The notes beneath the pieces are model-generated. The model saw only the letters and a list, made by a program, of their open reading frames with translations. It was not told the origin of the DNA and did no database searches. This document shows, piece by piece, positions 44,757-64,000 of a DNA stretch of 64,000 nt. How positions within the stretch are numbered: position 1 is the stretch's first letter; each line of letters begins with the position of its first letter. Source of the DNA: Rickettsiales bacterium (GTDB taxonomy: Bacteria; Pseudomonadota; Alphaproteobacteria; Rickettsiales; JABIRX01); contig CBDCUE010000006.1 in the NCBI GenBank assembly GCA_965222515.1, forward strand, positions 1,543 to 65,542, written 5' to 3'. The position numbers were made by a program, and so were the translations under genes.

Positions 44757-44894
44757 TATTCTTTCTTTCTGTTTTTTTAAAATTTAACTTTTTTAGTATC
44801 TTTTATCTTTTCTTATTTTGATAGAGATTTTTTAATCTTTTTTAAAATCTTCTTTTTCAAATTCTTCTAAACAAAAATCTTCTTTTCATAGTCT

Positions 44895-46995: not shown

Positions 46996-47080
46996 TGTTT
47001 TTGCTTACTGTTTTTTTTGATATTGAACTTTTTTATTATCTGTTATCTTTTCTTATTTTGATAGATGTTTGTTGTTTTTA

Positions 47081-47439
47081 GGGAGCGTTAAATCTATTTG
47101 TTTTTAGTTTTCATATTCCTTCCAAACTTTGAAAGATTTTACTTGGTATTTGAGCCAATTATTTCTTTCAAAATCCTTAATGACTACAAAGACATGATCT
47201 AACAATCTGTCTTCATTTTCAAAGCTAATTTTATGTTTATACTATTTTAATTTTATAATTGACCTATAGCCTTCAATCTGCTCAGCATAAATTGCTTTTT
47301 TTAATAATCTGTTAGCTATGGCTAGCAAATCATTAAAAAAAACAATTTCTACTAAACATCTTTTTGGCTATAGGTCAATTATAAAATTAAAATAGTATTA
47401 GTAGCTTTTCTAATCTGACACTTAAGATTTTCTATTCCA
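47081..47439 (-). mobile_element. IS256-family 3' remnant interrupted by a MITE
   Basis: Removing the MITE and one TTA restores IENLKCQIRKATKHKISFENEDRLLDHVFVVIKDFERNNW...*; end GGGAGCGTTAAATC at 47081. Confidence 0.72.
47240..47397. mobile_element. 158-bp MITE, copy 2
   Basis: Perfect 32-bp TIR and TTA target duplication (47237-47239, 47398-47400); inverted relative to 10276-10433. Confidence 0.92.
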
Positions 47440-47627
47440 TAATATAAATGTTCTTGCTGTTTTTTGCACAAATTTCTTTAAAAATTCCTATTTCTAATAG
47501 ATTATTTTAAAATAATAAAATTATCAACTTCTATTATGTTTAAATTTATTTTAATAGATCTTTTATATAAAATTCCTTTTATTATTTTATCCTCAAATTA
47601 TCATTTTTTACCCATACTCACTTACTG

Positions 47628-48125
47628 CTATTTTGTCCAACCTATACAATCCAATATCTCTCCTGTATCTATGTCTATTAAATAATTAAAACCATTCTGT
47701 AATCCCGCACTAAATTCACATTTTGATAAATCTAAATTAGGCTCATCTATCTCTATTTCATGTTTATCTACCATTATTGCATATTCCTTAATAACTTTTC
47801 CATTTTCTTTTATTTCAATAGCCATTCCTACATATACACTATCTTCTTTATACCCCTTATGATTATATTCTGCTACTTGCCATAATAATTTTCCTGTCTG
47901 TTTGCTGTAGCAAAAGAGATTTTCTCTTACTCGTTCTTCAGGAGTGGCATCTCTTGGTGAAATATTTTCTATTTTTTCTCTTGCATAAAAAGCTAAATTT
48001 AACCAATTAACTAAAAAGATTATTCTATCGGGTAATTCTATATATGATAATATTCTACTTTTAAAATCTACCTTAAATTTACCAAACTTTGCTATACTTC
48101 TATTTTTATTTAATTTGATGCTCAT
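47628..48125 (-). CDS. Array putative immunity protein, copy 1
   Basis: 165 aa with LPDRII...NLFCYSKQTGKLLWQV...YLIDIDTGEIL..GWTK; protein identical to copy 5. Confidence 0.85.
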   Translation of the reverse strand: MSIKLNKNRSIAKFGKFKVDFKSRILSYIELPDRIIFLVNWLNLAFYAREKIENISPRDATPEERVRENLFCYSKQTGKLLWQVAEYNHKGYKEDSVYVGMAIEIKENGKVIKEYAIMVDKHEIEIDEPNLDLSKCEFSAGLQNGFNYLIDIDTGEILDCIGWTK

Positions 48126-48132
48126 ATAATTT

Positions 48133-48312
48133 TTATTGTAAAGGTTTTGTATTTAAATACCATTCAGGTTTTATTTCTTGCAATATCTCTGTCTGTAGTC
48201 CTTCTCCTTGTCCAAAACTATTACTCCCTGCTCTTCCTGTTCTTATCTCTCTATTTTTAGGCAATTTTACATCCGTTACCCATAATATAAATGTTCTTGC
48301 TGTTTTTTGCAC
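48133..48312 (-). pseudogene. Toxin-tail ORF (59 codons)
   Basis: GTG...WVTDVKLPKNREIRTGRAGSNSFGQGEGLQTEILQEIKPEWYLNTKPLQ*, ending 7 nt before the next ATG. Confidence 0.65.
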
Positions 48313-48470
48313 AGATTTCTTTAAAAATTCCTATTTCTAATAGATTATTTTAAAATAATAAAATTATCAACTTCTATTATGTTTAAATTTATTTTAATAG
48401 ATCTTTTATATAAAATTCCTTTTATTATTTTATCCTCAAATTATCATTTTTTACCCATACTCACTTACTG

Positions 48471-48968
48471 CTATTTTGTCCAACCTATACAATCCAATAT
48501 CTCTCCTGTATCTATGTCTATTAAATACTCAAAACCATTCTGTAATCCCGCACTAAATTCACATTTTGATAAATCTAAATTAGGCTTATCTATCTCTATT
48601 TCATGTTTATCTACCATTATTGCATATCTCTTCACAACTTTTCCATTTTCTTTTATTTCAATAGCCATTCCTACATATACACTATCTTCTTTATACCCCT
48701 TATGATTATATTCTGCTACTTGCCATAATAATTTTCCTGTCTGTTTGCTGTAGCAAAAGAGATTTTCTCTTACTCGTTCTTCAGGAGTGGCATCTCTTGG
48801 TGAAATATTTTCTATTTTTTCTCTTGCATAAAAAGCTAAATTTAACCAATTAACTAAAAAGATTATTCTATCGGGTAATTCTATATATGATAATATTCTA
48901 CTTTTAAAATCTACCTTAAATTTACCAAACTTTGCTATACTTCTATTTTTATTTAATTTGATGCTCAT
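48471..48968 (-). CDS. Array putative immunity protein, copy 2
   Basis: KSRILS / EDS / VKRY / FEY allele combination. Confidence 0.85.
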   Translation of the reverse strand: MSIKLNKNRSIAKFGKFKVDFKSRILSYIELPDRIIFLVNWLNLAFYAREKIENISPRDATPEERVRENLFCYSKQTGKLLWQVAEYNHKGYKEDSVYVGMAIEIKENGKVVKRYAIMVDKHEIEIDKPNLDLSKCEFSAGLQNGFEYLIDIDTGEILDCIGWTK

Positions 48969-48975
48969 ATAATTT

Positions 48976-49155
48976 TTATTGTAAAGGTTTTGTATTTAAA
49001 TACCATTTAGGTTCTATTTTTTGCAATATCTCTGTCTGTAGTCCTTCTCCTTGCCCAAAACTATTACTCCCTGCTCTTCCTGTTCTTATCTCTCTATTTT
49101 TAGGCAATTCTACATCCGTTACCCATAATATAAATGTTCTTGCTGTTTTTTGCAC
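48976..49155 (-). pseudogene. Toxin-tail ORF
   Basis: Variant DVE..NRE..LQKIEPKW. Confidence 0.6.
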
Positions 49156-49313
49156 AAATTTCTTTAAAAATTCCTATTTCTAATAGATTATTTTAAAATA
49201 ATAAAATTATCAACTTCTATTATGTTTAAATTTATTTTAATAGATCTTTTATATAAAATTCCTTTTATTATTTTATCCTCAAATTATCATTTTTTACCCA
49301 TACTCACTTACTG

Positions 49314-49811
49314 CTATTTTGTCCAACCTATACAATCCAATATCTCTCCTGTATCTATGTCTATTAAATACTCAAAACCATTATGTAATCCCGCACTAAA
49401 TTCACATTTTGATAAATCTAAATTAGGCTTATCTATCTCTATTTCATGTTTATCTACCATTATTGCATATTCCTTAATAACTTTTCCATTTTCTTTTATT
49501 TCAATACCCATTCCTACATATACACTTTTCACTTTATACCCCTTATGATTATATTCTGCTACTTGCCATAATAATTTTCCTGTCTGTTTGCTGTAGCAAA
49601 AGAGATTTTCTCTTACTCGTTCTTCAGGAGTGGCATCTCTTGGTGAAATATTTTCTATTTTTTCTCTTGCATAAAAAGCTAAATTTAACCAATTAACTAA
49701 AAAGATTATTCTATCGGGTAATTCTATATATGATAATATTCTACTTTTAAAATCTACCTTAAATTTACCAAACTTTGCTATACTTCTATTTTTATTTAAT
49801 TTGATGCTCAT
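49314..49811 (-). CDS. Array putative immunity protein, copy 3
   Basis: KSRILS / VKS / GIE / IKEY combination. Confidence 0.85.
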   Translation of the reverse strand: MSIKLNKNRSIAKFGKFKVDFKSRILSYIELPDRIIFLVNWLNLAFYAREKIENISPRDATPEERVRENLFCYSKQTGKLLWQVAEYNHKGYKVKSVYVGMGIEIKENGKVIKEYAIMVDKHEIEIDKPNLDLSKCEFSAGLHNGFEYLIDIDTGEILDCIGWTK

Positions 49812-49818
49812 ATAATTT

Positions 49819-49998
49819 TTATTGTAAAGGTTTTGTATTTAAATACCATTCAGATTTTATTTTTTGCAATATCTCTGTCTGTAGTCCTTCTCCTTGTCCA
49901 AAACTATTACTCCCTGCTCTTCCTGTTCTTATCTCTCTATTTTTAGGCAATTCTACATCCGTTACCCATAATATAAATGTTCTTGCTGTTTTTTGCAC
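49819..49998 (-). pseudogene. Toxin-tail ORF
   Basis: Variant DVE..NRE..LQKIKSEW. Confidence 0.6.
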
Positions 49999-50137
49999 AA
50001 ATTTCTTTAAAAATTCCTATTTCTAATAGATTATTTTAAAATAATAAAATTATCAACTTCTATTATGTTTAAATTTATTTTAATAGATCTTTTATATAAA
50101 ATTCCTTTTATTATTTTTTACCCATACTCACTTACTG

Positions 50138-50641
50138 CTATTTTGTCCAACCTATACAATCCAATATCTCTCCTGTATTTATGTCTATTAAATACTTAAA
50201 ACCATTCTGTAATCCCGCAATAAATTCACATTTTGATAAATCTAAATTAGGCTCATCTATCTCTATTTCATCTTTATCTACCATTATTGCATATCTCTTC
50301 ACAACTTTTCCATTTTCTTTTATATAAAATCTCATTCCTACATATACACTATCTTCTTTATACCCCTTATGATTATATTCTGCTACTTGCCATAATAATT
50401 TTCCTGTCTGTTTGCTGTAGCAAAAGAGATTTTCTCTTACTCGTTCTTCAGGAGTGGCTTCTCTTGGCAGAAGTTCCCTTCCTGCTATTTTTTCTCTTTC
50501 ATGAAAAGCTAAATTTAATGGATTAACTAAAAAAAATATTCTATCAGGTAATGCTATATATGATCTTATAGCAGTTTTAAAATCTACTTTAAATTTACCA
50601 AACTTTGCTATACTTCTATTTTTATTTAATTTGATGCTCAT
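50138..50641 (-). CDS. Array putative immunity protein, copy 4 (167 aa)
   Basis: KTAIRS / AGRELLPRE insertion allele / EDS / RFY. Confidence 0.85.
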   Translation of the reverse strand: MSIKLNKNRSIAKFGKFKVDFKTAIRSYIALPDRIFFLVNPLNLAFHEREKIAGRELLPREATPEERVRENLFCYSKQTGKLLWQVAEYNHKGYKEDSVYVGMRFYIKENGKVVKRYAIMVDKDEIEIDEPNLDLSKCEFIAGLQNGFKYLIDINTGEILDCIGWTK

Positions 50642-50648
50642 ATAATTT

Positions 50649-50828
50649 TTATTGTAAAGGTTTTGTATTTAAATACCATTCAGGTTTTATTTCGTCCAAT
50701 ATCTCTGTCTGTAGTCCTTCTCCTTGCCCAAAACTATTACTCCCTGCTCTTCCTGTTCTTATATCTCTATTTTTAGGCAATTTTACATCCGTTACCCATA
50801 ATATAAATGTTCTTGCTGTTTTTTGCAC
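50649..50828 (-). pseudogene. Toxin-tail ORF
   Basis: Variant DVK..NRD..LDEIKPEW. Confidence 0.6.
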
Positions 50829-50986
50829 AGATTTCTTTAAAAATTCCTATTTCTAATAGATTATTTTAAAATAATAAAATTATCAACTTCTATTATGTTT
50901 AAATTTATTTTAATAGATCTTTTATATAAAATTCCTTTTATTATTTTATCCTCAAATTATCATTTTTTACCCATACTCACTTACTG

Positions 50987-51484
50987 CTATTTTGTCCAAC
51001 CTATACAATCCAATATCTCTCCTGTATCTATGTCTATTAAATAATTAAAACCATTCTGTAATCCCGCACTAAATTCACATTTTGATAAATCTAAATTAGG
51101 CTCATCTATCTCTATTTCATGTTTATCTACCATTATTGCATATTCCTTAATAACTTTTCCATTTTCTTTTATTTCAATAGCCATTCCTACATATACACTA
51201 TCTTCTTTATACCCCTTATGATTATATTCTGCTACTTGCCATAATAATTTTCCTGTCTGTTTGCTGTAGCAAAAGAGATTTTCTCTTACTCGTTCTTCAG
51301 GAGTGGCATCTCTTGGTGAAATATTTTCTATTTTTTCTCTTGCATAAAAAGCTAAATTTAACCAATTAACTAAAAAGATTATTCTATCGGGTAATTCTAT
51401 ATATGATAATATTCTACTTTTAAAATCTACCTTAAATTTACCAAACTTTGCTATACTTCTATTTTTATTTAATTTGATGCTCAT
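50987..51484 (-). CDS. Array putative immunity protein, copy 5
   Basis: Protein identical to copy 1. Confidence 0.85.
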   Translation of the reverse strand: MSIKLNKNRSIAKFGKFKVDFKSRILSYIELPDRIIFLVNWLNLAFYAREKIENISPRDATPEERVRENLFCYSKQTGKLLWQVAEYNHKGYKEDSVYVGMAIEIKENGKVIKEYAIMVDKHEIEIDEPNLDLSKCEFSAGLQNGFNYLIDIDTGEILDCIGWTK

Positions 51485-51491
51485 ATAATTT

Positions 51492-51671
51492 TTATTGTAA
51501 AGGTTTTGTATTTAAATACCATTCAGGTTTTATTTCTTGCAATATCTCTGTCTGTAGTCCTTCTCCTTGTCCAAAACTATTACTCCCTGCTCTTCCTGTT
51601 CTTATCTCTCTATTTTTAGGCAATTTTACATCCGTTACCCATAATATAAATGTTCTTGCTGTTTTTTGCAC
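51492..51671 (-). pseudogene. Toxin-tail ORF
   Basis: Same peptide as 48133-48312. Confidence 0.6.
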
Positions 51672-51829
51672 AGATTTCTTTAAAAATTCCTATTTCTAAT
51701 AGATTATTTTAAAATAATAAAATTATCAACTTCTATTATGTTTAAATTTATTTTAATAGATCTTTTATATAAAATTCCTTTTATTATTTTATCCTCAAAT
51801 TATCATTTTTTACCCATACTCACTTACTG

Positions 51830-52327
51830 CTATTTTGTCCAACCTATACAATCCAATATCTCTCCTGTATCTATGTCTATTAAATACTCAAAACCATTCT
51901 GTAATCCCGCACTAAATTCACATTTTGATAAATCTAAATTAGGCTTATCTATCTCTATTTCATGTTTATCTACCATTATTGCATATCTCTTCACAACTTT
52001 TCCATTTTCTTTTATTTCAATAGCCATTCCTACATATACACTTTTCACTTTATACCCCTTATGATTATATTCTGCTACTTGCCATAATAATTTTCCTGTC
52101 TGTTTGCTGTAGCAAAAGAGATTTTCTCTTACTCGTTCTTCAGGAGTGGCATCTCTTGGTGAAATATTTTCTATTTTCTTTCTTGCATAATAAGCTAAAT
52201 TTAATGGACTAACTAAAAAGATTATTCTATCAGGTAATGCTATATATGATCTTATAGCAGTTTTAAAATCTACCTTAAATTTACCAAACTTTGCTATACT
52301 TCTATTTTTATTTAATTTGATGCTCAT
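51830..52327 (-). CDS. Array putative immunity protein, copy 6
   Basis: KTAIRS / SPL / VKS / VKRY. Confidence 0.85.
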   Translation of the reverse strand: MSIKLNKNRSIAKFGKFKVDFKTAIRSYIALPDRIIFLVSPLNLAYYARKKIENISPRDATPEERVRENLFCYSKQTGKLLWQVAEYNHKGYKVKSVYVGMAIEIKENGKVVKRYAIMVDKHEIEIDKPNLDLSKCEFSAGLQNGFEYLIDIDTGEILDCIGWTK

Positions 52328-52334
52328 ATAATTT

Positions 52335-52514
52335 TTATTGTAAAGGTTTTGTATTTAAATACCATTTAGATTCTATTTTTTGCAATATCTCTGTCTGTAG
52401 TCCTTCTCCTTGTCCAAAACTATTACTCCCTGCTCTTCCTGTTCTTATCTCTGTATTTTTAGGCAATTCTACATCCGTTACCCATAATATAAATGTTCTT
52501 GCTGTTTTTTGCAC
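52335..52514 (-). pseudogene. Toxin-tail ORF
   Basis: Variant DVE..NTE..LQKIESKW. Confidence 0.6.
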
Positions 52515-52672
52515 AGATTTCTTTAAAAATTCCTATTTCTAATAGATTATTTTAAAATAATAAAATTATCAACCTCTATTATGTTTAAATTTATTTTAAT
52601 AGATCTTTTATATAAAATTCCTTTTATTATTTTATCCTCAAATTATCATTTTTTACCCATACTCACTTACTG

Positions 52673-53170
52673 CTATTTTGTCCAACCTATACAATCCAAT
52701 ATCTCTCCTGTATTTATGTCTATTAAATACTCAAAACCATTCTGTAATCCCGCACTAAATTCACATTTTGATAAATCTAAATTAGGCTTATCTATCTCTA
52801 TTTCATGTTTATCTACCATTATTGCATATCTCTTCACAACTTTTCCATTTTCTTTTATTTCAATAGCCATTCCTACATATACACTTTTCACTTTATACCC
52901 CTTATGATTATATTCTGCTACTTGCCATAATAATTTTCCTGTCTGTTTGCTGTAGCAAAAGAGATTTTGTTCTACTTCTTCTTCAGGAGTGGCATCTCTT
53001 GGTGAAATATTTTCTATTTTTTCTCTTGCATAAAAAGCTAAATTAAACCAATTAACTAAAAAGATTATTCTATCAGGTAATTCTATATAAGATAATATTC
53101 TACTTTTAAAATCTACCTTAAATTTACCAAACTTTGCTATACTTCTATTTTTATTTAATTTGATGCTCAT
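52673..53170 (-). CDS. Array putative immunity protein, copy 7
   Basis: KSRILS / NWF / EEEVEQ / VKS. Confidence 0.85.
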   Translation of the reverse strand: MSIKLNKNRSIAKFGKFKVDFKSRILSYIELPDRIIFLVNWFNLAFYAREKIENISPRDATPEEEVEQNLFCYSKQTGKLLWQVAEYNHKGYKVKSVYVGMAIEIKENGKVVKRYAIMVDKHEIEIDKPNLDLSKCEFSAGLQNGFEYLIDINTGEILDCIGWTK

Positions 53171-53177
53171 ATAATTT

Positions 53178-53357
53178 TTATTGTAAAGGTTTTGTATTTA
53201 AATACCATTTAGGTTCTATTTCGTCCAATATCTCTGTCTGTAGTCCTTCTCCTTGTCCAAAACTATTACTCCCTGCTCTTCCTGTTCTTATCTCTCTATT
53301 TTTAGGCAATTCTACATCCGTTACCCATAATATAAATGTTCTTGCTGTTTTTTGCAC
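53178..53357 (-). pseudogene. Toxin-tail ORF
   Basis: Variant DVE..NRE..LDEIEPKW. Confidence 0.6.
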
Positions 53358-53515
53358 AGATTTCTTTAAAAATTCCTATTTCTAATAGATTATTTTAAAA
53401 TAATGAAATTATCAACTTCTATTATGTTTAAATTTATTTTAATAGATCTTTTATATAAAATTCCTTTTATTATTTTATCCTCAAATTATCATTTTTTACC
53501 CATACTCACTTACTG

Positions 53516-54013
53516 CTATTTTGTCCAACCTATACAATCCAATATCTCTCCTGTATTTATGTCTATTAAATACTTAAAACCATTCTGTAATCCCGCAATA
53601 AATTCACATTTTGATAAATCTAAATTAGGCTCATCTATCTCTATTTCATCTTTATCTACCATTATTGCATATCTCTTCACAACTTTTCCATTTTCTTTTA
53701 TATAAAATCTCATTCCTACATATACACTTTTCACTTTATACCCCTTATGATTATATTCTGCTACTTGCCATAATAATTTTCCTGTCTGTTTGCTGTAGCA
53801 AAAGAGATTTTGATCTACTTCTTCTTCAGGAGTGGCATCTCTTGGTGAAATATTTTCTATTTTCTTTCTTGCATAATAAGCTAAATTAAACCAATTAACT
53901 AAAAAGATTATTCTATCGGGTAATTCTATATATGATTTTATAGCAGTTTTAAAATCTACTTTAAATTTACCAAACTTTGCTATACTTCTATTTTTATTTA
54001 ATTTGATGTTCAT
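53516..54013 (-). CDS. Array putative immunity protein, copy 8
   Basis: KTAIKS / NWF / EEEVDQ / VKS / RFY. Confidence 0.85.
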   Translation of the reverse strand: MNIKLNKNRSIAKFGKFKVDFKTAIKSYIELPDRIIFLVNWFNLAYYARKKIENISPRDATPEEEVDQNLFCYSKQTGKLLWQVAEYNHKGYKVKSVYVGMRFYIKENGKVVKRYAIMVDKDEIEIDEPNLDLSKCEFIAGLQNGFKYLIDINTGEILDCIGWTK

Positions 54014-54020
54014 ATAATTT

Positions 54021-54200
54021 TTATTGTAAAGGTTTTGTATTTAAATACCATTTAGGTTTTATTTCGTCCAATATCTCTGTCTGTAGTCCTTCTCCTTGTC
54101 CAAAACTATTACTCCCTGCTCTTCCTGTTCTTATCTCTGTATTTTTAGGCAATTTTACATCCGTTACCCATAATATAAATGTTCTTGCTGTTTTTTGCAC
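54021..54200 (-). pseudogene. Toxin-tail ORF
   Basis: Variant DVK..NTE..LDEIKPKW. Confidence 0.6.
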
Positions 54201-54358
54201 AAATTTCTTTAAAAATTCCTATTTCTAATAGATTATTTTAAAATAATAAAATTATCAACTTCTATTATGTTTAAATTTATTTTAATAGATCTTTTATATA
54301 AAATTCCTTTTATTATTTTATCCTCAAATTATCATTTTTTACCCATACTCACTTACTG

Positions 54359-54856
54359 CTATTTTGTCCAACCTATACAATCCAATATCTCTCCTGTATT
54401 TATGTCTATTAAATACTTAAAACCATTCTGTAATCCCGCACTAAATTCACATTTTGATAAATCTAAATTAGGCTCATCTATCTCTATTTCATGTTTATCT
54501 ACCATTATTGCATATCTCTTCACAACTTTTCCATTTTCTTTTATTTCAATAGCCATTCCTACATATACACTATCTTCTTTATACCCCTTATGATTATATT
54601 CTGCTACTTGCCATAATAATTTTCCTGTCTGTTTGCTGTAGCAAAAGAGATTTTCTCTTACTCGTTCTTCAGGAGTGGCATCTCTTGGTGAAATATTTTC
54701 TATTTTCTTTCTTGCATAATAAGCTAAATTTAATGGACTAACTAAAAAGATTATTCTATCAGGTAATGCTATATATGATCTTATAGCAGTTTTAAAATCT
54801 ACCTTAAATTTACCAAACTTTGCTATACTTCTATTTTTATTTAATTTGATGCTCAT
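54359..54856 (-). CDS. Array putative immunity protein, copy 9
   Basis: KTAIRS / SPL / EDS / FKY; protein identical to copy 11. Confidence 0.85.
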   Translation of the reverse strand: MSIKLNKNRSIAKFGKFKVDFKTAIRSYIALPDRIIFLVSPLNLAYYARKKIENISPRDATPEERVRENLFCYSKQTGKLLWQVAEYNHKGYKEDSVYVGMAIEIKENGKVVKRYAIMVDKHEIEIDEPNLDLSKCEFSAGLQNGFKYLIDINTGEILDCIGWTK

Positions 54857-54863
54857 ATAATTT

Positions 54864-55043
54864 TTATTGTAAAGGTTTTGTATTTAAATACCATTTAGGT
54901 TCTATTTCTTGCAATATCTCTGTCTGTAGTCCTTCTCCTTGTTCAAAACTATTACTCCCTGCTCTTCCTGTTCTTATCTCTCTATTTTTAGGCAATTCTA
55001 CATCCGTTACCCATAATATAAATGTTCTTGCTGTTTTTTGCAC
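54864..55043 (-). pseudogene. Toxin-tail ORF
   Basis: Variant DVE..NRE..SFEQG..LQEIEPKW. Confidence 0.6.
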
Positions 55044-55686
55044 AGATTTCTTTAAAAATTCCTATTTCTAATAGATTATTTTAAAATAATAAAATTATCA
55101 ACTTCTATTATGTTTAAATTTATTTTAATAGATCTTTTATATAAAATTCCTTTTATTATTTTATCCTCAAATTATCATTTTTTACCCATACTCACTTACT
55201 GCTATTTTGTCCAACCTATACAATCCAATATCTCTCCTGTATCTATGTCTATTAAATAATTAAAACCATTCTGTAATCCCGCACTAAATTCACATTTTGA
55301 TAAATCTAAATTAGGCTTATCTATCTCTATTTCATGTTTATCTACCATTATTGCATATCTCTTCACAACTTTTTCATTTTCTTTTATTTCAATAGCCATT
55401 CCTACATATACACTTTTCACTTTATACCCCTTATGATTATATTCTGCTACTTGCCATAATAATTTTCCTGTCTGTTTGCTGTAGCAAAAGAGATTTTGAT
55501 CTACTTCTTCTTCAGGAGTGGCATCTCTTGGTGAAATATTTTCTATTTTTTCTCTTGCATAAAAAGCTAAATTAAACCAATTAACTAAAAAGATTATTCT
55601 ATCAGGTAATTCTATATAAGATAATATTCTACTTTTAAAATCTACCTTAAATTTACCAAACTTTGCTATACTTCTATTTTTATTTA

Positions 55687-57351
55687 GAGTCTGCTGAATT
55701 AGATAATATTTTCCAATAAAAAATTAATTCTTTCCAAAAGACATTTTTTTAAATTTTAAAAATATATTTTCAAATTATTTTTTAATCCATTTTTAGTTTT
55801 TTATTTAATTTTTAATGTAATATTTGTATTAAACCTCTCTTAATGCTTTAAATAAGTTAAAACTAACCATAGCTATACTAGTTTGAATGGCAGCTCCATT
55901 CATAGTTTTCAACACTATTTTATTTAATGTGTAATCTTTTTTTAAATTTCCTATTACCCCCTCAACTCTAGACCTTGATTTCCTCAATTTCCTTTTTTCT
56001 AATTTTTGCTTAGCTGTAGATTTTCCTTGATTCTTAAGACTATGTTTTATATCAAAACTCTTTAATAAAGCTTTATTATCAAACGAAGAATAACCATCAT
56101 CTATCAGAACCTTCTTCGGCAATCTCTCAAATCTATCTTGATGATTTGCTAAACTATTCTTTAATTCTAACTTCTCATTAAATGCCCTATGCTCTACTTT
56201 ATCACTAAACACATAACCATCTGTTAAAGCTATATGTGCCTTTGCTCCAAATTCTGTTTTTTTACCTCCTTCCTTGCCTCTTTTGATTGGTCTTACAAAT
56301 GGTTGGTCAAAACTTATTATTCTGCCTGGAATACTTGTAACCTTTTCTTTGTATTTTCTTTGTTGTTGCCTAAAAATCTCTTTTCCTACTACTAACTTTT
56401 TTTCTATTTCCTTTATTAACCCTTGTAAACCCACCTCCTCAATCAATCCTAACTGAAAATTACCAGACGATAATTTCTTCTTTGCTCCCTTTATTATTGC
56501 TACCAATTGATTAATATTTCTATTAGTAAAATTCAACATTTTCCTAGTTGCCTTATTTATTACTTTCTTGTTCTTCTGCTTCTTTTTTGCAAAATCTAAA
56601 TATACTTTCTTTGCTTTTCTTTTGTAAGTTCTTATCTTCTCTTCTATTTTGAACTTTTTTTTTAATATATCTATTTGCTTAATTGCATAACTTCTTACAG
56701 TATTAAGCAATTTTACATCATTTGGATATTCTATTTTACTCTCAAACACTGTACCATCAAGCAACAATTCTTTTCCTTTGACAAACCTTTTATCCTTTAG
56801 CACCTCTAATATTTCTGATTCAAATTTTAAAAAATACTCTGCTCCTAATTTATTTCTTCTTTTTGTTAATAAGCTAGGATCCATCACTTTTGTTATCTTG
56901 CTTACAAAAGTATCATAACCACAAAAATATTGAAAATATGGATTTTCATAAAAATATTCTAATATCTCAACATCACTCAAACCTAATCTTACTTTACCGA
57001 TAAGCAAACCTAGCACTAATTTAGCTGATTTTACCACTCCCAATCTTTTAGGATCAAAATATTTATCATGAAGTGCAATCAAATTATCCCAAGGAACTAG
57101 CTCTGATAATTTTATCCATCTGTTGTTTTCGTCTAACTTACCTCCAAAAGGCATCATATCTGCAAATAATGGTAATGTTCTCATAGCAATGTCTAAAAAA
57201 AATTATATTTTTTTCTAAAAAAGTGCAAAGGTTTTCTCGTCATTATCTTCAAACCTTTGCATTTTTACTCAAAAATCTAACATAAATATACCACTCAAAC
57301 CCTTATAATACAACCCTTTTCCTTGCTTTTTTTACCTAATTCAGCAGACTC
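55687..57351 (-). mobile_element. IS5-like element, 1665 bp, 6-bp target duplication
   Basis: 16-bp perfect IR GAGTCTGCTGAATTAG / CTAATTCAGCAGACTC; TATTTA duplicated at 55681-55686 and 57352-57357. Confidence 0.93.
55829..57184 (-). CDS. IS5-like DDE transposase
   Basis: NRWIKLSELVPWD, ENPYFQYFCG, LLDGTV....I.YPND, EFGAK, LIDDGY, RSRVEGVIG. Confidence 0.9.
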   Translation of the reverse strand: MRTLPLFADMMPFGGKLDENNRWIKLSELVPWDNLIALHDKYFDPKRLGVVKSAKLVLGLLIGKVRLGLSDVEILEYFYENPYFQYFCGYDTFVSKITKVMDPSLLTKRRNKLGAEYFLKFESEILEVLKDKRFVKGKELLLDGTVFESKIEYPNDVKLLNTVRSYAIKQIDILKKKFKIEEKIRTYKRKAKKVYLDFAKKKQKNKKVINKATRKMLNFTNRNINQLVAIIKGAKKKLSSGNFQLGLIEEVGLQGLIKEIEKKLVVGKEIFRQQQRKYKEKVTSIPGRIISFDQPFVRPIKRGKEGGKKTEFGAKAHIALTDGYVFSDKVEHRAFNEKLELKNSLANHQDRFERLPKKVLIDDGYSSFDNKALLKSFDIKHSLKNQGKSTAKQKLEKRKLRKSRSRVEGVIGNLKKDYTLNKIVLKTMNGAAIQTSIAMVSFNLFKALREV

Positions 57352-57377
57352 TATTTAATTTGATGCTCATATAATTT

Positions 57378-57557
57378 TTATTGTAAAGGTTTTGTATTTA
57401 AATACCATTTAGATTCTATTTTTTGCAATATCTCTGTCTGTAGTCCTTCTCCTTGTCCAAAACTATTACTCCCTGCTCTTCCTGTTCTTATATCTCTATT
57501 TTTAGGCAATTCTACATCCGTTACCCATAATATAAATGTTCTTGCTGTTTTTTGCAC
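57378..57557 (-). pseudogene. Toxin-tail ORF
   Basis: Variant DVE..NRD..LQKIESKW. Confidence 0.6.
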
Positions 57558-57715
57558 AAATTTCTTTAAAAATTCCTATTTCTAATAGATTATTTTAAAA
57601 TAATAAAATTATCAACTTCTATTATGTTTAAATTTATTTTAATAGATCTTTTATATAAAATTCCTTTTATTATTTTATCCTCAAATTATCATTTTTTACC
57701 CATACTCACTTACTG

Positions 57716-58213
57716 CTATTTTGTCCAACCTATACAATCCAATATCTCTCCTGTATTTATGTCTATTAAATACTTAAAACCATTCTGTAATCCCGCACTA
57801 AATTCACATTTTGATAAATCTAAATTAGGCTCATCTATCTCTATTTCATGTTTATCTACCATTATTGCATATCTCTTCACAACTTTTCCATTTTCTTTTA
57901 TTTCAATAGCCATTCCTACATATACACTATCTTCTTTATACCCCTTATGATTATATTCTGCTACTTGCCATAATAATTTTCCTGTCTGTTTGCTGTAGCA
58001 AAAGAGATTTTCTCTTACTCGTTCTTCAGGAGTGGCATCTCTTGGTGAAATATTTTCTATTTTCTTTCTTGCATAATAAGCTAAATTTAATGGACTAACT
58101 AAAAAGATTATTCTATCAGGTAATGCTATATATGATCTTATAGCAGTTTTAAAATCTACCTTAAATTTACCAAACTTTGCTATACTTCTATTTTTATTTA
58201 ATTTGATGCTCAT
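57716..58213 (-). CDS. Array putative immunity protein, copy 11
   Basis: Protein identical to copy 9. Confidence 0.85.
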   Translation of the reverse strand: MSIKLNKNRSIAKFGKFKVDFKTAIRSYIALPDRIIFLVSPLNLAYYARKKIENISPRDATPEERVRENLFCYSKQTGKLLWQVAEYNHKGYKEDSVYVGMAIEIKENGKVVKRYAIMVDKHEIEIDEPNLDLSKCEFSAGLQNGFKYLIDINTGEILDCIGWTK

Positions 58214-58220
58214 ATAATTT

Positions 58221-58400
58221 TTATTGTAAAGGTTTTGTATTTAAATACCATTTAGGTTCTATTTCTTGCAATATCTCTGTCTGTAGTCCTTCTCCTTGCC
58301 CAAAACTATTACTCCCTGCTCTTCCTGTTCTTATCTCTGTATTTTTAGGCAATTTTACATCCGTTACCCATAATATAAATGTTCTTGCTGTTTTTTGCAC
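58221..58400 (-). pseudogene. Toxin-tail ORF
   Basis: Variant DVK..NTE..LQEIEPKW. Confidence 0.6.
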
Positions 58401-58558
58401 AAATTTCTTTAAAAATTCCTATTTCTAATAGATTATTTTAAAATAATAAAATTATCAACTTCTATTATGTTTAAATTTATTTTAATAGATCTTTTATATA
58501 AAATTCCTTTTATTATTTTATCCTCAAATTATCATTTTTTACCCATACTCACTTACTG

Positions 58559-59047
58559 CTATTTTGTCCAACCTATACAATCCAATATCTCTCCTGTATT
58601 TATGTCTATTAAATACTTAAAACCATTCTGTAATCCCGCAATAAATTCACATTTTGATAAATCTAAATTAGGCTCATCTATCTCTATTTCATCTTTATCT
58701 ACCATTATTGCATATCTCTTCACAACTTTTCCATTTTCTTTTATATAAAATCTCATTCCTACATATACACTTTTCACTTTATACCCCTTATGATTATATT
58801 CTGCTACTTGCCATAATAATTTTCCTGTCTGTTTGCTGTAGCAAAAGAGATTTTGACTTATTTCGTATAAATTAGTTGCATGATACCAATTTAATAAAAT
58901 TATTATTCTATCTGGTAACTCTATTAAATATTTAATTTCATTAGGAGCTTTTATAACTAAATTATTATCTAATTCTATATTAGTATTTACAAAAGTCTCT
59001 TCCCCAGCAGATAAAATCTTCTTTGTTTTATGTAATTTATATCCCAT
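58559..59047 (-). CDS. Array putative immunity protein, copy 12, divergent N-terminal half
   Basis: MGYKLHKTKK...IELPDRIIILLNWYHATNLYEISQNLF, then the same C-terminal half as copy 8. Confidence 0.85.
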   Translation of the reverse strand: MGYKLHKTKKILSAGEETFVNTNIELDNNLVIKAPNEIKYLIELPDRIIILLNWYHATNLYEISQNLFCYSKQTGKLLWQVAEYNHKGYKVKSVYVGMRFYIKENGKVVKRYAIMVDKDEIEIDEPNLDLSKCEFIAGLQNGFKYLIDINTGEILDCIGWTK

Positions 59048-59049
59048 TT

Positions 59050-59238
59050 TTATTTTATTTTAATTGTATTTTTAAACCAATTCGAATTAATGTCTTCTCT
59101 AGGTACCAATATCTCTGTCTGTAGTCCTTCTCCTTGTCCAAAACTATTACTCCCTGCTCTTCCTGTTCTTATCTCTGTATTTTTAGGCAATTTTACATCC
59201 GTTACCCATAATATAAATGTTCTTGCTGTTTTTTGCAC
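59050..59238 (-). pseudogene. Toxin-tail ORF with divergent tip
   Basis: ...GLQTEILVPREDINSNWFKNTIKIK*. Confidence 0.65.
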
Positions 59239-59396
59239 AGATTTCTTTAAAAATTCCTATTTCTAATAGATTATTTTAAAATAATGAAATTATCAACTTC
59301 TATTATGTTTAAATTTATTTTAATAGATCTTTTATATAAAATTCCTTTTATTATTTTATCCTCAAATTATCATTTTTTACCCATACTCACTTACTG

Positions 59397-59894
59397 CTAT
59401 TTTGTCCAACCTATACAATCCAATATCTCTCCTGTATCTATGTCTATTAAATAATTAAAACCATTCTGTAATCCCGCACTAAATTCACATTTTGATAAAT
59501 CTAAATTAGGCTCATCTATCTCTATTTCATGTTTATCTACCATTATTTCATATTCCTTAATAACTTTTCCATTTTCTTTTATTTCAATACCCATTCCTAC
59601 ATATACACTTTTCACTTTATACCCCTTATGATTATATTCTGCTACTTGCCATAATAATTTTCCTGTCTGTTTGCTGTAGCAAAAGAGATTTTCTCTTACT
59701 CGTTCTTCAGGAGTGGCATCTCTTGGTGAAATATTTTCTATTTTCTTTCTTGCATAATAAGCTAAATTTAATGGACTAACTAAAAAGATTATTCTATCAG
59801 GTAATGCTATATATGATCTTATAGCAGTTTTAAAATCTACCTTAAATTTACCAAACTTTGCTATACTTCTATTTTTATTTAATTTGATGCTCAT
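59397..59894 (-). CDS. Array putative immunity protein, copy 13
   Basis: KTAIRS / SPL / VKS / GIE / IKEYE. Confidence 0.85.
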   Translation of the reverse strand: MSIKLNKNRSIAKFGKFKVDFKTAIRSYIALPDRIIFLVSPLNLAYYARKKIENISPRDATPEERVRENLFCYSKQTGKLLWQVAEYNHKGYKVKSVYVGMGIEIKENGKVIKEYEIMVDKHEIEIDEPNLDLSKCEFSAGLQNGFNYLIDIDTGEILDCIGWTK

Positions 59895-59901
59895 ATAATT
59901 T

Positions 59902-60081
59902 TTATTGTAAAGGTTTTGTATTTAAATACCATTCAGGTTTTTTTTTGTCCAATATCTCTGTCTGTAGCCCTTCTCCTTGTCCAAAATTATTACTCCCTGC
60001 TCTTCCTGTTCTTATCTCTGTATTTTTAGGCAATTTTACATCCGTTACCCATAATATAAATGTTCTTGCTGTTTTTTGCAC
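59902..60081 (-). pseudogene. Toxin-tail ORF
   Basis: Variant DVK..NTE..GSNNF..LDKKKPEW. Confidence 0.6.
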
Positions 60082-60239
60082 AAATTTCTTTAAAAATTCC
60101 TATTTCTAATAGATTATTTTAAAATAATAAAATTATCAACTTCTATTATGTTTAAATTTATTTTAATAGATCTTTTATATAAAATTCCTTTTATTATTTT
60201 ATCCTCAAATTATCATTTTTTACCCATACTCACTTACTG

Positions 60240-60743
60240 CTATTTTGTCCAACCTATACAATCCAATATCTCTCCTGTATCTATGTCTATTAAATAATTA
60301 AAACCATTCTGTAATCCCGCACTAAATTCACATTTTGATAAATCTAAATTAGGCTCATCTATCTCTATTTCATGTTTATCTACCATTATTGCATATTCCT
60401 TAATAACTTTTCCATTTTCTTTTATTTCAATACCCATTCCTACATATACACTTTTCACTTTATACCCCTTATGATTATATTCTGCTACTTGCCATAATAA
60501 TTTTCCTGTCTGTTTGCTGTAGCAAAAGAGATTTTCTCTTACTCGTTCTTCAGGAGTGGCTTCCTCTGGCATAAGTTCTCTTCCTGCTATTTTTTCTCTT
60601 TCATGAAAAGCTAAATTTAATGGATTAACTAAAAAGATTATTCTATCGGGTAATGCTATATATGATCTTATAGCAGTTTTAAAATCTACCTTAAATTTAC
60701 CAAACTTTGCTATACTTCTATTTTTATTTAATTTGATGCTCAT
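60240..60743 (-). CDS. Array putative immunity protein, copy 14 (167 aa)
   Basis: KTAIRS / AGRELMPEE / VKS / GIE. Confidence 0.85.
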   Translation of the reverse strand: MSIKLNKNRSIAKFGKFKVDFKTAIRSYIALPDRIIFLVNPLNLAFHEREKIAGRELMPEEATPEERVRENLFCYSKQTGKLLWQVAEYNHKGYKVKSVYVGMGIEIKENGKVIKEYAIMVDKHEIEIDEPNLDLSKCEFSAGLQNGFNYLIDIDTGEILDCIGWTK

Positions 60744-60750
60744 ATAATTT

Positions 60751-60930
60751 TTATTGTAAAGGTTTTGTATTTAAATACCATTCAGATTTTATTTTGTCCA
60801 ATATCTCTGTCTGTAGTCCTTCTCCTTGTCCAAAACTATTACTCCCTGCTCTTCCTGTTCTTATATCTCTATTTTTAGGCAATTTTACATCCGTTACCCA
60901 TAATATAAATGTTCTTGCTGTTTTTTGCAC
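60751..60930 (-). pseudogene. Toxin-tail ORF
   Basis: Variant DVK..NRD..LDKIKSEW. Confidence 0.6.
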
Positions 60931-61088
60931 AGATTTCTTTAAAAATTCCTATTTCTAATAGATTATTTTAAAATAATAAAATTATCAACTTCTATTATGT
61001 TTAAATTTATTTTAATAGATCTTTTATATAAAATTCCTTTTATTATTTTATCCTCAAATTATCATTTTTTACCCATACTCACTTACTG

Positions 61089-61494
61089 CTATTTTGTCCA
61101 ACCTATACAATCCAATATCTCTCCTGTATCTATGTCTATTAAATAATTAAAACCATTCTGTAATCCCGCACTAAATTCACATTTTGATAAATCTAAATTA
61201 GGCTCATCTATCTCTATTTCATGTTTATCTACCATTATTTCATATTCCTTAATAACTTTTCCATTTTCTTTTATTTCAATACCCATTCCTACATATACAC
61301 TATCTTCTTTATACCCCTTATGATTATATTCTGCTACTTGCCATAATAATTTTCCTGTCTGTTTGCTGTAGCAAAAGAGATTTTGACTTATTTCGTATAA
61401 ATTAGTTGCATGATACCAATTTAATAAAATTATTATTCTATCTGGTAACTCTATTAAATATTTAATTTCATTAGGAGCTTTTATAACTAAATTA
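61089..61494 (-). pseudogene. Array putative immunity gene copy 15 (copy-12-type N-half), 5'-truncated by IS5
   Basis: Homology to 58559-59047 stops at NLVIKAPNE, where the IS end GTCGTCCC begins; the ORF-track start at 61580 lies inside the IS. Confidence 0.85.
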
Positions 61495-62986
61495 GTCGTC
61501 CCTAAAAAACTATAAAAAGCCTTGCAGTATAAGGTTTTTTTTGTATAATTTGCATAGTAAAAACACAAGCTTATTACCAATAACTCTTAAAACCTTGCAA
61601 AAATGTTACACAAAACTCACCAAACAGGAAATGATATGGATATGTTCAGAAATGAATTAGTAAATATCATAAATATGAAACATAAATTAGTAATATTGTC
61701 AAAATTAGTAGATTGGAGAAGCATGGAAAAGAAGTTTTCTATAAAATATAGTAATTTGGGAAGAGGAGGACTACCTATAAGATTAATGTGTGGATTATTG
61801 ATGTTAAAAGAAATAGAAAAGCAATCAGATGAAAAGATATGTGAGCTTTGGGTAGAGAATCCATATTATCAATATTTTTGTGGAAGTAGATATTTTGAGC
61901 ATAAGTTACCAACAGTTCCAGAGAATTTGGTGTATTTTAGAAAAAGAATAGGAGAAGAAGGGATGGAATATTTGTTTTCAGAAACAATAGAAATAGCAAA
62001 AAATACAAAAGTTTTAAAATCAGCTGATTTTAAAAGAGTAACAGTAGATAGCACAGTTCAAGAAAAAGCAATAACTTATCCTACAGATACTAAGCTGTGC
62101 CATAAAGCAAGGGAGAGTTTGGTAAAGTTGGCAGAAGCAGAGGGTATAAAATTGAGGCAGAATTATAAAATAGTTGGTAAAAAGAGTCTTTTTATGTCAG
62201 CGAGATACAGTATGTCAAGAAAGGGTAGAAAAGCAAAAGCAGAACAGAAAAAAGTAAAGAATTATTTGGGTAGAGTAATAAGGGATATTGATAATAAGAA
62301 AGGAGATTTGAAAAACAATAGTAAATTATTTCAAGCATTGCTAAGAGCAAAGTTAATTTACAATCAGCAAAGAACGGATAAGAATAAGATTTATTCATGG
62401 CATGAAGATGTGAGTTGCATAAGTAAGGGAAAAGCTCACAAGAAATATGAGTTTGGTTGTAAAGTAGGTTTTGTAGTAAGTTCTAGGTCAAATTTTGTTT
62501 TAGGAGCAAAATCATTTGATAACAATCCGTATGATGGACATACATTAAAATCTAATTTGAAACAAGCAGAAAGGTTGAGTGGCAAGAGTTTTAGGAAGGT
62601 TTATGTTGATCAAGGCTATAAAGATCATGGAATAAAAGATAAAAATGTTATTGTGGCAAGAACAAGAAAGAAAACATTATCTATTTTGCAAAAGAAATAT
62701 CAAAAACGAAGAAATGCGATAGAGCCAGTGATAGGTCATATTAAAAATGATGGCTCAAGGGGGGCAAGATGTTATCTTAAAGGAAAAATGGGCGATAATA
62801 TGAATGGCAATAGCAACTGCTATGGGATTTAACTTAAGAAAGCTGTTAAACTGCATAGATAGTTATCTTTTTGCCAAAATCCAAATGGTAATTTTTGTAA
62901 TAAAAAGTATTTTTTTAAGAAAAAACACACTTTTTATTATTTAATAATTGTTAATTTAACTAAAAATGTAATTATTTAGGTGCTAC
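61495..62986 (+). mobile_element. IS5-family element with non-matching flanks
   Basis: Ends TA|GTCGTCCCTAAA and TTTAGGTGCTAC|TA (compare GTCGCACCTAAA at 42588). The left flank is array gene; the right flank is IS3 sequence equivalent to 44473. Confidence 0.88.
61603..62832 (+). CDS. IS5-family transposase, frameshifted near the C-terminus
   Basis: ENPYYQYFCG, VDSTVQEKAITYPTD, KYEFGCKV, GNPYDGHTL-like NNPYDGHTL, VDQGY; extra G near 62805 relative to the 42712-43017 copy. Confidence 0.9.
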   Translation: MLHKTHQTGNDMDMFRNELVNIINMKHKLVILSKLVDWRSMEKKFSIKYSNLGRGGLPIRLMCGLLMLKEIEKQSDEKICELWVENPYYQYFCGSRYFEHKLPTVPENLVYFRKRIGEEGMEYLFSETIEIAKNTKVLKSADFKRVTVDSTVQEKAITYPTDTKLCHKARESLVKLAEAEGIKLRQNYKIVGKKSLFMSARYSMSRKGRKAKAEQKKVKNYLGRVIRDIDNKKGDLKNNSKLFQALLRAKLIYNQQRTDKNKIYSWHEDVSCISKGKAHKKYEFGCKVGFVVSSRSNFVLGAKSFDNNPYDGHTLKSNLKQAERLSGKSFRKVYVDQGYKDHGIKDKNVIVARTRKKTLSILQKKYQKRRNAIEPVIGHIKNDGSRGARCYLKGKMGDNMNGNSNCYGI

Positions 62987-63595
62987 TATCTAGTTTTTTA
63001 AATGATAAAATTAGCAATAATTTTATCATTATTTATGTAATTTTATCTCATTATTTGATTTAAAATTACAAAGGTTTTAATGGTTTTTTTTAGGAATAAA
63101 TTAAAGGCAAATTCTATCTTAAATTTTTCTAAAACCTGTCCAGTCAAAAGGGCTCACCATACTTGGTATGTTCTTAAATCATCAATTGAATTTATTGCTA
63201 TAAAATCATTCGCTAAACTGCTTTGATGAGTTATTATAAATGCTATAAAAATTAAAAATGCTTTTAACATTATTCTTTCTTTCTGTTTTTTTAAAATTTA
63301 ACTTTTTTAGTATCTTTTATCTTTTCTTATTTTGATAGAGATTTTTTAATCTTTTTTAAAATCTTTCCAAAAATCTTCTTTTTCAAATTCTTCTAAACAA
63401 AAATCTTCTTTTCATAGTCTTTAGCCCTTATAAATATTCTTACTTGGATCTTTTAATCCATCTCCTGTATCACAATTATACCAATCTCCCTTAAGGGCTT
63501 TGCAAGATTTCTTATATTCTTCTATCTCTTTCTTGCTCATATCCTCCATATCTTCTTCATCCTCCTCTCCATCATAATACCAATAGGCTGATGGA
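62987..63595. repeat. Near-identical second copy of 44473-45069 (IS3 right end, toxin stub, intergenic, 3' end of the DUF596-like gene)
   Basis: Direct alignment with a few substitutions and 12 extra nt near 63365. Confidence 0.93.
63163..63270 (-). pseudogene. 36-codon 5' stub of toxin-like gene, copy 2
   Basis: Identical to 44649-44756, with the same IS3 junction. Confidence 0.82.
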
Positions 63596-64000
63596 GGGAG
63601 TCCATAAAAATAAAAATCTAAATGAGTATCAAAACTTACCTTTTGTTTTGTTCCGCAATATTTTTCATCTCCTTCTTTAGGAAAACTTTTATCAAAATAA
63701 GCAATCACATCTTCTGTTTTTGTTTTTTCATCAAATTTTACATAGTCTTTTGTATTTTCACGATAATCCTTTGGTAATTCATCCATTAAAGCTTCTCTGC
63801 TTGTGTATCCTTTTCCCTTAAACCTCAATAACCCCTTCCTCATATAATATTCTATTAATTCCAAAAATATCTGCTTCTTTTCGCTTAGAGGGAGGTTTAA
63901 AGTTTTTGCTGGATATATTGTATTATCCCATATATCTATTGGTTTTACAAATGGATACTCCATATCATCCTCAAGATTTTTTAAATCATATTGATCTAAA
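63421..64000 (-). CDS. Second DUF596-like putative immunity protein (5' end outside window)
   Basis: Frame is open to the window edge (LDQYDLKNLEDDMEY aligns with LEEYEVDKLEDIMKE of 44895-45551); shares FLELIEYYMRKGLLRF and a near-identical C-terminus. Confidence 0.65.
   Translation of the reverse strand, partial: LDQYDLKNLEDDMEYPFVKPIDIWDNTIYPAKTLNLPLSEKKQIFLELIEYYMRKGLLRFKGKGYTSREALMDELPKDYRENTKDYVKFDEKTKTEDVIAYFDKSFPKEGDEKYCGTKQKVSFDTHLDFYFYGLPPSAYWYYDGEEDEEDMEDMSKKEIEEYKKSCKALKGDWYNCDTGDGLKDPSKNIYKG

Follow-up and report, generated by a model that had tools for sequence, protein, structure and literature searches.

A tandem array of candidate orphan cdiA-CT'/cdiI cassettes with recombinationally mosaic immunity genes in a Rickettsiales bacterium

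We analysed a 64,000-nucleotide (nt) stretch of a Rickettsiales genome (contig CBDCUE010000006.1 of assembly GCA_965222515.1, positions 1,543 to 65,542 of the forward strand; hereafter the window), which carries a tandem array of cassettes, each made of a short toxin tail and a gene for an immunity-type protein of about 165 amino acids (aa). A motif search of the window found 15 minus-strand occurrences of the translated motif CIGWTK* (asterisk, stop codon), the lowest at 47628 and the highest at 61089, in agreement with a preliminary description that had reported 15 tandem units of ~843 bp. The stop-to-stop period was 843 bp in most units. Loss of 19 nt from the spacer shortens it to 824 bp, a 6-nt insertion that keeps the frame lengthens it to 849 bp, a deep variant measures 838 bp, and an insertion sequence (IS) stretches one interval to 2514 bp. 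The array was not reported by the tandem repeat program TRF because its period exceeds the maximum period of 500 used there. Read 5' to 3', a unit comprises a ~190-nt spacer, a ~65-codon toxin tail, a 7-nt gap and the 165-aa gene (hereafter the immunity gene). The distance from the tail stop to the immunity ATG was 7 nt in every unit, and successive immunity genes lay ~345 nt apart. The tail follows the pattern EFLKKFVQKTARTFILWVTDV.LPKN..IRTGRAGSNSFGQGEGLQTEIL......WYLNTKPLQ*, and its reading frame opens directly after a stop codon, with GTG as its sole start and no ATG.

The cassettes were 87-100% identical and form one family (Table 1). As had been described, open reading frame (ORF) translations gave 13 intact immunity genes encoding 11 distinct proteins; the identical pairs were 47628 with 50987 and 54359 with 57716, and units 1 and 5 had the same DNA across the full 843 bp. 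The gene of unit 10 was broken after about codon 6 by an IS with terminal inverted repeats GAGTCTGCTGAATTAG and the target-site duplication TAAATA, and became intact once the IS and the duplicated TAAATA were removed in silico. Unit 12 differed from the major type in the N-terminal ~60 residues of its immunity protein and in the C-terminal end of its tail (VPREDINSNWFKNTIKIK). Unit 15 was truncated at its 5' end by the neighbouring IS, at ...NLVIKAPNEIK (~61494), and homology in the partial 16th unit ended after ...ACATTTATATTATGG, where it adjoins a palindromic element. Most units also held a plus-strand ORF of 93-108 aa antisense to the immunity gene (e.g. 48379-48705); these are probably by-products of strand-biased, AT-rich coding sequence, the GC skew being about -0.4 over the array.

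Table 1 Coordinates of the array, its units and the IS elements in and beside it (positions in the window).
Feature	Coordinates	Strand	CIGWTK* stop codon	Immunity gene	Toxin tail	Remarks
Whole array	47437-61494	-				15 tandem cassette units and a partial 16th at the low-coordinate (3') end
Partial 16th unit	47437-47627	-				Spacer and first ~45 nt of toxin tail
Unit 1	47628-48470	-	47628	47628-48125 (165 aa), intact	48133-48312	Unit includes spacer
Unit 2	48471-49313	-	48471	48471-48968, intact	48976-49155
Unit 3	49314-50137	-	49314	49314-49811, intact	49819-49998	19-nt spacer deletion, 824 bp
Unit 4	50138-50986	-	50138	50138-50641 (167 aa), intact	50649-50828	6-nt in-frame insertion, AGRELLPRE patch
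Unit 5	50987-51829	-	50987	50987-51484, intact	51492-51671
Unit 6	51830-52672	-	51830	51830-52327, intact	52335-52514
Unit 7	52673-53515	-	52673	52673-53170, intact	53178-53357
Unit 8	53516-54358	-	53516	53516-54013, intact	54021-54200
Unit 9	54359-55201	-	54359	54359-54856, intact	54864-55043
Unit 10	55202-57715	-	55202	55202-55686 + 57352-57370, split by IS	57378-57557
Unit 11	57716-58558	-	57716	57716-58213, intact	58221-58400	Protein identical to unit 9
Unit 12	58559-59396	-	58559	58559-59047 (162 aa), intact	59050-59238	Deep variant
Unit 13	59397-60239	-	59397	59397-59894, intact	59902-60081
Unit 14	60240-61088	-	60240	60240-60743 (167 aa), intact	60751-60930
Unit 15	61089-61494	-	61089	Deep variant, truncated		First in reading direction; without tail
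IS5-family element (1665 bp)	55687-57351	-				451-aa transposase 55829-57184; DUF772 and DDE_Tnp_1
Second IS5-family element	61495-62832	+				409-aa transposase 61603-62832; abuts and truncates upstream end of array; 62832 is the transposase end, right end of element unmapped

Sequence diversity was tabulated from an alignment of the 13 major-type units out of 15. The spacer contained two variable sites among 121, both singletons (nucleotide diversity π 0.0025), the tail 15 among 198 (π 0.030), and the immunity gene 64 among 498 (π 0.049). Diversity was thus ~20-fold lower in the spacer than in the immunity gene (Fisher p = 6e-5 for variable sites). Within the immunity gene, codons 69-93 were invariant, silent sites included. 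The differences were clustered and often involved several nucleotides per codon, as in GTGAAA/GAAGAT for VK/ED, or in the AIE versus RFY patch encoded by GCTATTGAA/AGATTTTAT, and they define ~16 variable patches with two to five states each. All patches previously listed were present in the array proteins, and the four combinations of KSRI/KTAI with EDS/VKS were found at the units cited for them (47628, 49314, 54359 and 51830).

The suggestion that these combinations reflect recombination or gene conversion was borne out. All four gametes occurred in 1132 of the 1953 pairs formed by 63 biallelic informative sites, the Hudson-Kaplan minimum was Rmin = 18 recombination events, and a statistic modelled on the pairwise homoplasy index (PHI) was 0.275 for neighbouring sites versus 0.579 ± 0.021 after permutation (p <= 0.0005). 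In units 58559 and 61089 the N-terminal ~60 residues were only distantly related to those of other units and resembled another branch of the family (P0032, P0034, P0039), but were fused to C-terminal halves identical with other units, which indicates exchange between deeply diverged alleles. An origin of the mosaic by recombination or gene conversion is therefore strongly supported. The same patch states, together with a few new ones, were recombined on two more contigs (119,590 and 174,094 bp), and the window and these contigs together encode at least 29 distinct proteins. Protein clusters from the two contigs included no full-length protein with the tail, only ORFs of 59-62 aa.

The constant period and the invariant spacer suggest that unequal crossover amplified the units in tandem and that they were not acquired independently one after another, and the 20-fold excess of variation in the patches over the spacer argues that the patch variation did not come from neutral mutation after amplification. 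Either older alleles were imported or retained, or the variation was maintained by selection. A diversity-generating retroelement was considered and rejected, as no reverse transcriptase ORF was found in the window and the substitutions were of all types, not adenine-specific. Because neither a reverse transcriptase nor a dedicated recombinase is present, the array is not a new kind of diversifying machine; ordinary homologous recombination within the tandem array is sufficient to explain the shuffle, and no dedicated machinery was found for the candidate immunity-diversifying system of the preliminary description.

We searched for relatives of the immunity protein and for the genes beside them. 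HMMER, run exhaustively over 1.84 billion representative proteins, found only 15 clusters of the family, and a profile search of 5.8 billion clusters found 63; the family is small and mostly metagenomic, and a plasmid collection gave no match to the immunity protein. A homologue lay directly behind a matching toxin C-terminal domain in all 11 distinct loci that had upstream sequence (L002, L003, L004, L005, L006/L007, L008, L009, L010, L011, L012/L016 and L017), often with overlapping stop and start codons of toxin and homologue. The shared toxin domain has ~150 residues and the motifs ...VHVF...G.W.MP.SE...EIQQKF.LP..PTH.VDVKP...G..N.FG.GGG.QW.I...W..NP..L. In L006, a gene for a ShlB/POTRA transporter (cdiB) was followed by one for a 2542-aa protein with two-partner secretion (TPS) and Fil_haemagg_2 domains (cdiA) and by a homologue overlapping the cdiA stop codon, an arrangement that identifies a canonical cdiB-cdiA-cdiI locus for contact-dependent growth inhibition (CDI). 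A homologue likewise followed a 2336-aa TPS/Fil_haemagg_2 protein (cdiA) in L008 and a DUF637 FhaB-like protein in L002.

The window tails align to the last ~65 residues of the C-terminal toxin domains (CdiA-CT) of these relatives. The tail is thus a piece from the 3' end of a CdiA-CT toxin whose family is undescribed, too short to be the toxin itself, and the 165-aa protein occupies the CdiI position. This protein has no signal peptide and no hydrophobic segment, and we read it as a cytoplasmic immunity protein of the CdiI type. In unit 12, the deep-variant immunity N-terminus was accompanied by a deep-variant tail end. The toxin-tail/immunity assignment made earlier is thus supported by the related loci, those with cdiB and cdiA among them.

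Domain searches were uninformative. Pfam, NCBIfam, PADLOC and PDB-sequence searches with the related full toxin domains returned nothing usable. Precomputed matches of the family to DUF7957 (PF25857) were at most "faint" and below the gathering threshold, and hmmscan at E <= 10 was empty for this domain in the window proteins and their relatives. The sole PADLOC hit, to oMTase (20 bits, in the deep variant), was judged spurious. The toxin motif FGxGGGQQW resembles TNT/DUF4237 NADases, a possible lead that received no support from hmmscan or a PDB profile search. In the species-representative genome collection the sole match was a 524-aa protein of a Planctomycetota metagenome-assembled genome (L001, 3639-5213), a large PQQ/BamB-like repeat protein that shares with the immunity protein only the blade motif RQTGKLLWQ/QTGKLLWQ and, by its context, does not belong to the family.

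An AlphaFold2 model of the immunity protein, built with 49 family sequences, was mostly beta and had a predicted local distance difference test (pLDDT) of 89 and a predicted template-modelling (TM) score (pTM) of 0.85. In Foldseek searches of PDB structures it resembled only beta-propeller blades, and these weakly (BamB, PQQ-type and the designed Ika4; TM <= 0.45, no hit at E <= 0.001); together with the blade motif of the planctomycete protein, these matches hint that the predicted fold may be derived from propeller blades. Variable positions alternated within predicted strands (112/114/116, 24/26/30 and 36/40/42), which suggests that the patches lie on one exposed face of the model, a surface placement taken only from the periodicity of the secondary structure.

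Two marine relatives showed the same organization on a smaller scale. In L010 (42% GC), a full toxin domain and its immunity gene were followed by two [tail + immunity] repeats with a 751-bp period (orphan region 3042-4121), and in L006 a tail fragment that an IS interrupts comes after cdiI (10489-10617). The orphan fragments start with an ATG that shares bases with the TGA ending the immunity gene before it (ATGA), and the stretch that they take from the toxin opens with MS.AEIQQKF, which corresponds to EFLKKF in the window. This breakpoint is common to lineages at ~30% protein identity and could reflect common cassette ancestry or a functional boundary. The main and orphan copies of L010 were 100% identical over EIQQKF...VDVKP and 80-90% identical at the immunity 3' end, with 20-60% identity between the two segments. 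Conserved arms thus enclose a variable core that takes in the tip of the toxin as well as the immunity gene. The main toxin and the orphans of L010 differ in the same two tail regions that are variable in the window.

The analysis thus establishes how the units are built, that tail and gene are homologous to CdiA-CT/CdiI pairs of other loci, and that recombination among units is pervasive. Our preferred explanation, which we consider probable, is that it is a homotypic orphan cdiA-CT'/cdiI array that arose by tandem amplification, was shuffled by recombination and provides an immunity repertoire against variants of one toxin family; the repertoire function is the part that we infer from sequence. 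A segment reaching from within cdiA-CT to just past cdiI would have been duplicated in tandem and then amplified through unequal homologous recombination, and several divergent alleles would have come into the array. Crossover or gene conversion in the long identical stretches (the spacer, the 5' part of the tail, codons 69-93 and the 3' end of the gene) would shuffle the ~16 variable patches into many combinations. The intact genes may then act as immunity variants guarding against variant toxins of one CdiA-CT family delivered by related competitors, and the tails would be non-toxic remnants that double as 5' homology arms.

Several observations weigh against this immunity repertoire. Pairwise Nei-Gojobori ratios of nonsynonymous to synonymous change (dN/dS), named as a check in the preliminary description, were 1.09 for the immunity gene, with no clear replacement excess, and 2.6 for the tail. 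The window contains no ORF for cdiB (ShlB/POTRA) and no large TPS/filamentous-haemagglutinin cdiA, and among the 5.8 billion clusters no full-length protein carried the window tail, only ORFs of 59-62 aa. Neither the tail nor the 165-aa protein had a Pfam, NCBIfam, PADLOC or PDB match. Promoter-like sites in the array were no commoner than in shuffled sequence, no terminator-like sites were found, and the array genes had no clear Shine-Dalgarno sequence. One IS inside a unit, another truncating the array and an IS-rich region fit relaxed selection, and the copy number is that of the assembly.

The main rival, which we regard as rather unlikely, is a silent-cassette reservoir, in which the units serve mainly as donors, like pilS or the tpsA/mafB/Rhs orphans. 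Recombination between EFLKKF...VTDV (equivalent to EIQQKF...VDVKP) and the conserved immunity 3' end would, in one step, exchange both the tip that sets specificity in an expressed cdiA-CT and the variable portion of its cdiI, changing the toxin/immunity type of the strain. Such a role would account for a tail frame that is open in every unit and for the tail's own variable patches after VTDV and before W(Y/F)xN, with their dN/dS of 2.6. The toxin-derived start point common to the window, L010 and L006, the recurrence in L010 of the same two tail regions as differences between main and orphan copies, and the arms there, 100% and 80-90% identical around a divergent middle, are also what donors would be expected to show. 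However, neither the window nor the protein collection of these contigs yielded an expressed cdiA ending in this domain, the tails of the window lack an ATG and could start only at GTG, and switching would not require as many as 15 copies.

A related but bolder idea, which we put forward as doubtful, is that the CdiA-CT family is bipartite, with a conserved N-terminal catalytic part and a ~65-residue exchangeable C-terminal specificity tip, and that the same-family cassette arrays of the window, L010 and L006 are a dedicated device for switching and diversifying specificity. If this were true, the tip would be exchanged together with the variable part of the immunity gene, and recombination within the array would generate new matched combinations of toxin tip and immunity protein, like a pilS system that serves interbacterial recognition.

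The dN/dS of ~1 in the immunity gene also fits a neutral by-product, an improbable reading in which a tandem amplification drifts and is homogenised under relaxed selection in an IS-rich, probably host-associated genome, its mosaic being produced by unequal crossover among a few old alleles and its genes having no current function. The IS insertions in and beside the array, the lack of a cognate toxin among the sequences searched and a promoter signal not above chance are in keeping with it. A ratio near 1 is no proof of positive selection; replacement changes affected 36 of the 39 variable codons of the immunity gene and 12 of the 13 of the tail. Pure neutrality nevertheless fits poorly. Thirteen of the 15 ORFs are open and the 14th was broken only by a recent IS, the chance of zero stop codons among 64 random substitutions is ~0.01, and all coding indels are in frame, whereas the spacer holds a 19-nt deletion. 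In addition, the spacer is 20-fold less diverse, and the variation is limited to patches at positions that are less conserved in the wider family (mean 0.36 versus 0.48, Mann-Whitney p = 0.008).

That the amplification simply raises the dosage of immunity protein against one toxin, with the diversity incidental, is very improbable: the units are tandem, co-oriented and near-identical, with no intervening terminators, as dosage would have it, but the 13 genes yield 11 distinct proteins whose differences are clustered, multi-nucleotide and amino-acid-changing while silent and non-coding sites are homogenised. An assembly artefact (a repeat that was collapsed or expanded, or several strains joined into a chimera) might be suspected because the array lies no more than ~5 kb from where its 66-kb contig ends, IS copies are adjacent and two other contigs hold similar arrays, but it is scarcely credible given discrete in-frame patches rather than random errors, an IS with its target-site duplication inside one unit, and array ends that both join unique sequence.

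The surroundings of the array are rich in IS elements, with several IS5-family copies or fragments on its flanks; one, a 101-aa ORF (42712-43017, minus strand), resembles the C-terminus of the 409-aa transposase listed in Table 1. The 66,453-bp contig ends ~2.5-5 kb past the array, whose upstream end is truncated by the IS at ~61495, and unique sequence adjoins the array at both ends. A palindrome at 47239-47398 (two 78-nt arms, 83% complementary and 4 nt apart) lies at the 3' breakpoint of the array and may be an insertion resembling a miniature inverted-repeat transposable element that truncated it.

A second putative toxin/immunity-like pair was found beyond the palindrome, consisting of a 479-aa signal-peptide protein (45556-46995, minus strand) and, after a 4-nt gap, a 218-aa protein (44895-45551). 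On the opposite flank of the array, this second protein has a paralogue of 180 aa that is 55% identical overall and fully so over the last 68 residues (63421-63963, minus strand). These three proteins had no Pfam, NCBIfam or PADLOC match, save a weak hint of DUF596. Three co-linear direct repeats (44643-44833 versus 46885-47073, 76-87% identical, ~2240 bp apart) show that the start of the 479-aa gene and the sequence ahead of it recur beyond the 218-aa gene, on its downstream side, which suggests that this module was also tandemly duplicated and then cut by the nearby IS3-type element (rve integrase ORF, 43745-44326). Elsewhere in the window, a CcrM-like adenine methyltransferase gene (10449-11570, plus strand) directly follows rpoC, and an N6-adenine methyltransferase-like gene (38263-39366, plus strand) overlaps the end of an unannotated 260-aa ORF (37518-38300) that may encode its restriction partner. 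The window belongs to an AT-rich genome of 29% GC and carries the alphaproteobacterial markers 5-aminolevulinate synthase, addB_alphas and the CcrM-like methyltransferase; Rfam searches found nothing in it.

Work on the specificity of CDI toxins and immunity proteins usually compares unrelated families. In this case, at least 29 immunity proteins of close relationship differ in ~16 discrete patches on an invariant and confidently modelled scaffold, each variant being paired with a matching series of toxin tips, and they form a natural combinatorial library for mapping specificity residues. The array also bears on the question of whether the evolution of tandem immunity arrays proceeds through collecting genes, through shuffling them in place or through both. 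It defines an uncharacterised CdiA-CT/CdiI family with no Pfam or PDB relative, whose orphan cassettes start at a fixed point within the toxin in distant lineages. We see the main value of the array in this library and in the conserved intra-toxin breakpoint.

Silent cassette systems such as Neisseria pilS and the tpsA and mafB cassettes are, like the window array, made of promoterless 3' cassettes of conserved and variable mini-segments that recombine. The window array differs in having no identified expression locus and in carrying a complete and potentially functional immunity gene in each cassette.

Closer counterparts are the classical orphan cdiA-CT/cdiI modules found downstream of CDI loci (Poole et al. 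2011, PMC3150448). Both consist of 5'-truncated toxin fragments without secretion domains, each with an immunity gene and arranged in series, and both keep a conserved segment able to act as a recombination arm. In the window, as in CDI loci generally, a small immunity gene lies immediately downstream of the toxin-coding 3' end, and, as in orphan modules, a toxin fragment without the 5' secretion and repeat regions or a start of its own precedes an intact candidate cdiI. The classical arrays, however, join unrelated toxin/immunity families and use a pre-toxin (VENN) arm, whereas the window array has 15 cassettes of one family, its fragment starts inside the toxin domain (the last ~65 residues), and the window has no cdiBA upstream of the array.

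Homogeneous polyimmunity loci, proposed as pre-emptive defence against variant toxins of non-kin (Zhang, Aravind et al. 2012, PMC3482391), are likewise tandem, co-oriented paralogues of one immunity family, defined by at least four such genes in one orientation; the window has 15, all on the minus strand. By definition, no toxin cassette ever intervenes in such loci and their genes lie close together, and their paralogues are often only distantly related, whereas the window array has near-identical mosaics with a toxin remnant and a 190-nt spacer before every gene. It falls outside the polyimmunity definition because a toxin remnant precedes each gene. In view of these loci, and of the same-family repeats in the unrelated marine L010 and L006, the novelty claimed in the preliminary description was overstated; its toxin-tail/immunity identity and its recombination hold, and the proposed library of immunity alleles stands as an interpretation.

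The orphan immunity gene arrays of the Vibrio cholerae type VI secretion system (T6SS) (Kirchberger et al. 2017, PMC5361080) are also mosaic, serial immunity genes kept after effector displacement, with frequent homologous recombination. They are mostly heterotypic, horizontally acquired and T6SS-linked, whereas the constant 843-bp period and invariant spacer of the window array indicate tandem amplification, and its toxin is of the type V secretion system/CDI type. The Rickettsia CRCT/CRCA modules with arrayed antidotes (Verhoeve et al. 2022, PMC9111745) share with the window CDI/Rhs-like toxin-antidote modules and duplicated antidote genes in AT-rich alphaproteobacterial genomes. By their description, the arrayed rCRCA-3 antidotes diverge strongly and carry CDD domains that are CdiI-like, whereas the window family has no Pfam, NCBIfam or PDB match. 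Orphan cdiA-CT/cdiI arrays and homogeneous polyimmunity loci are thus already known, and the array described here is an unusual one-family version built from an uncharacterised toxin/immunity family.

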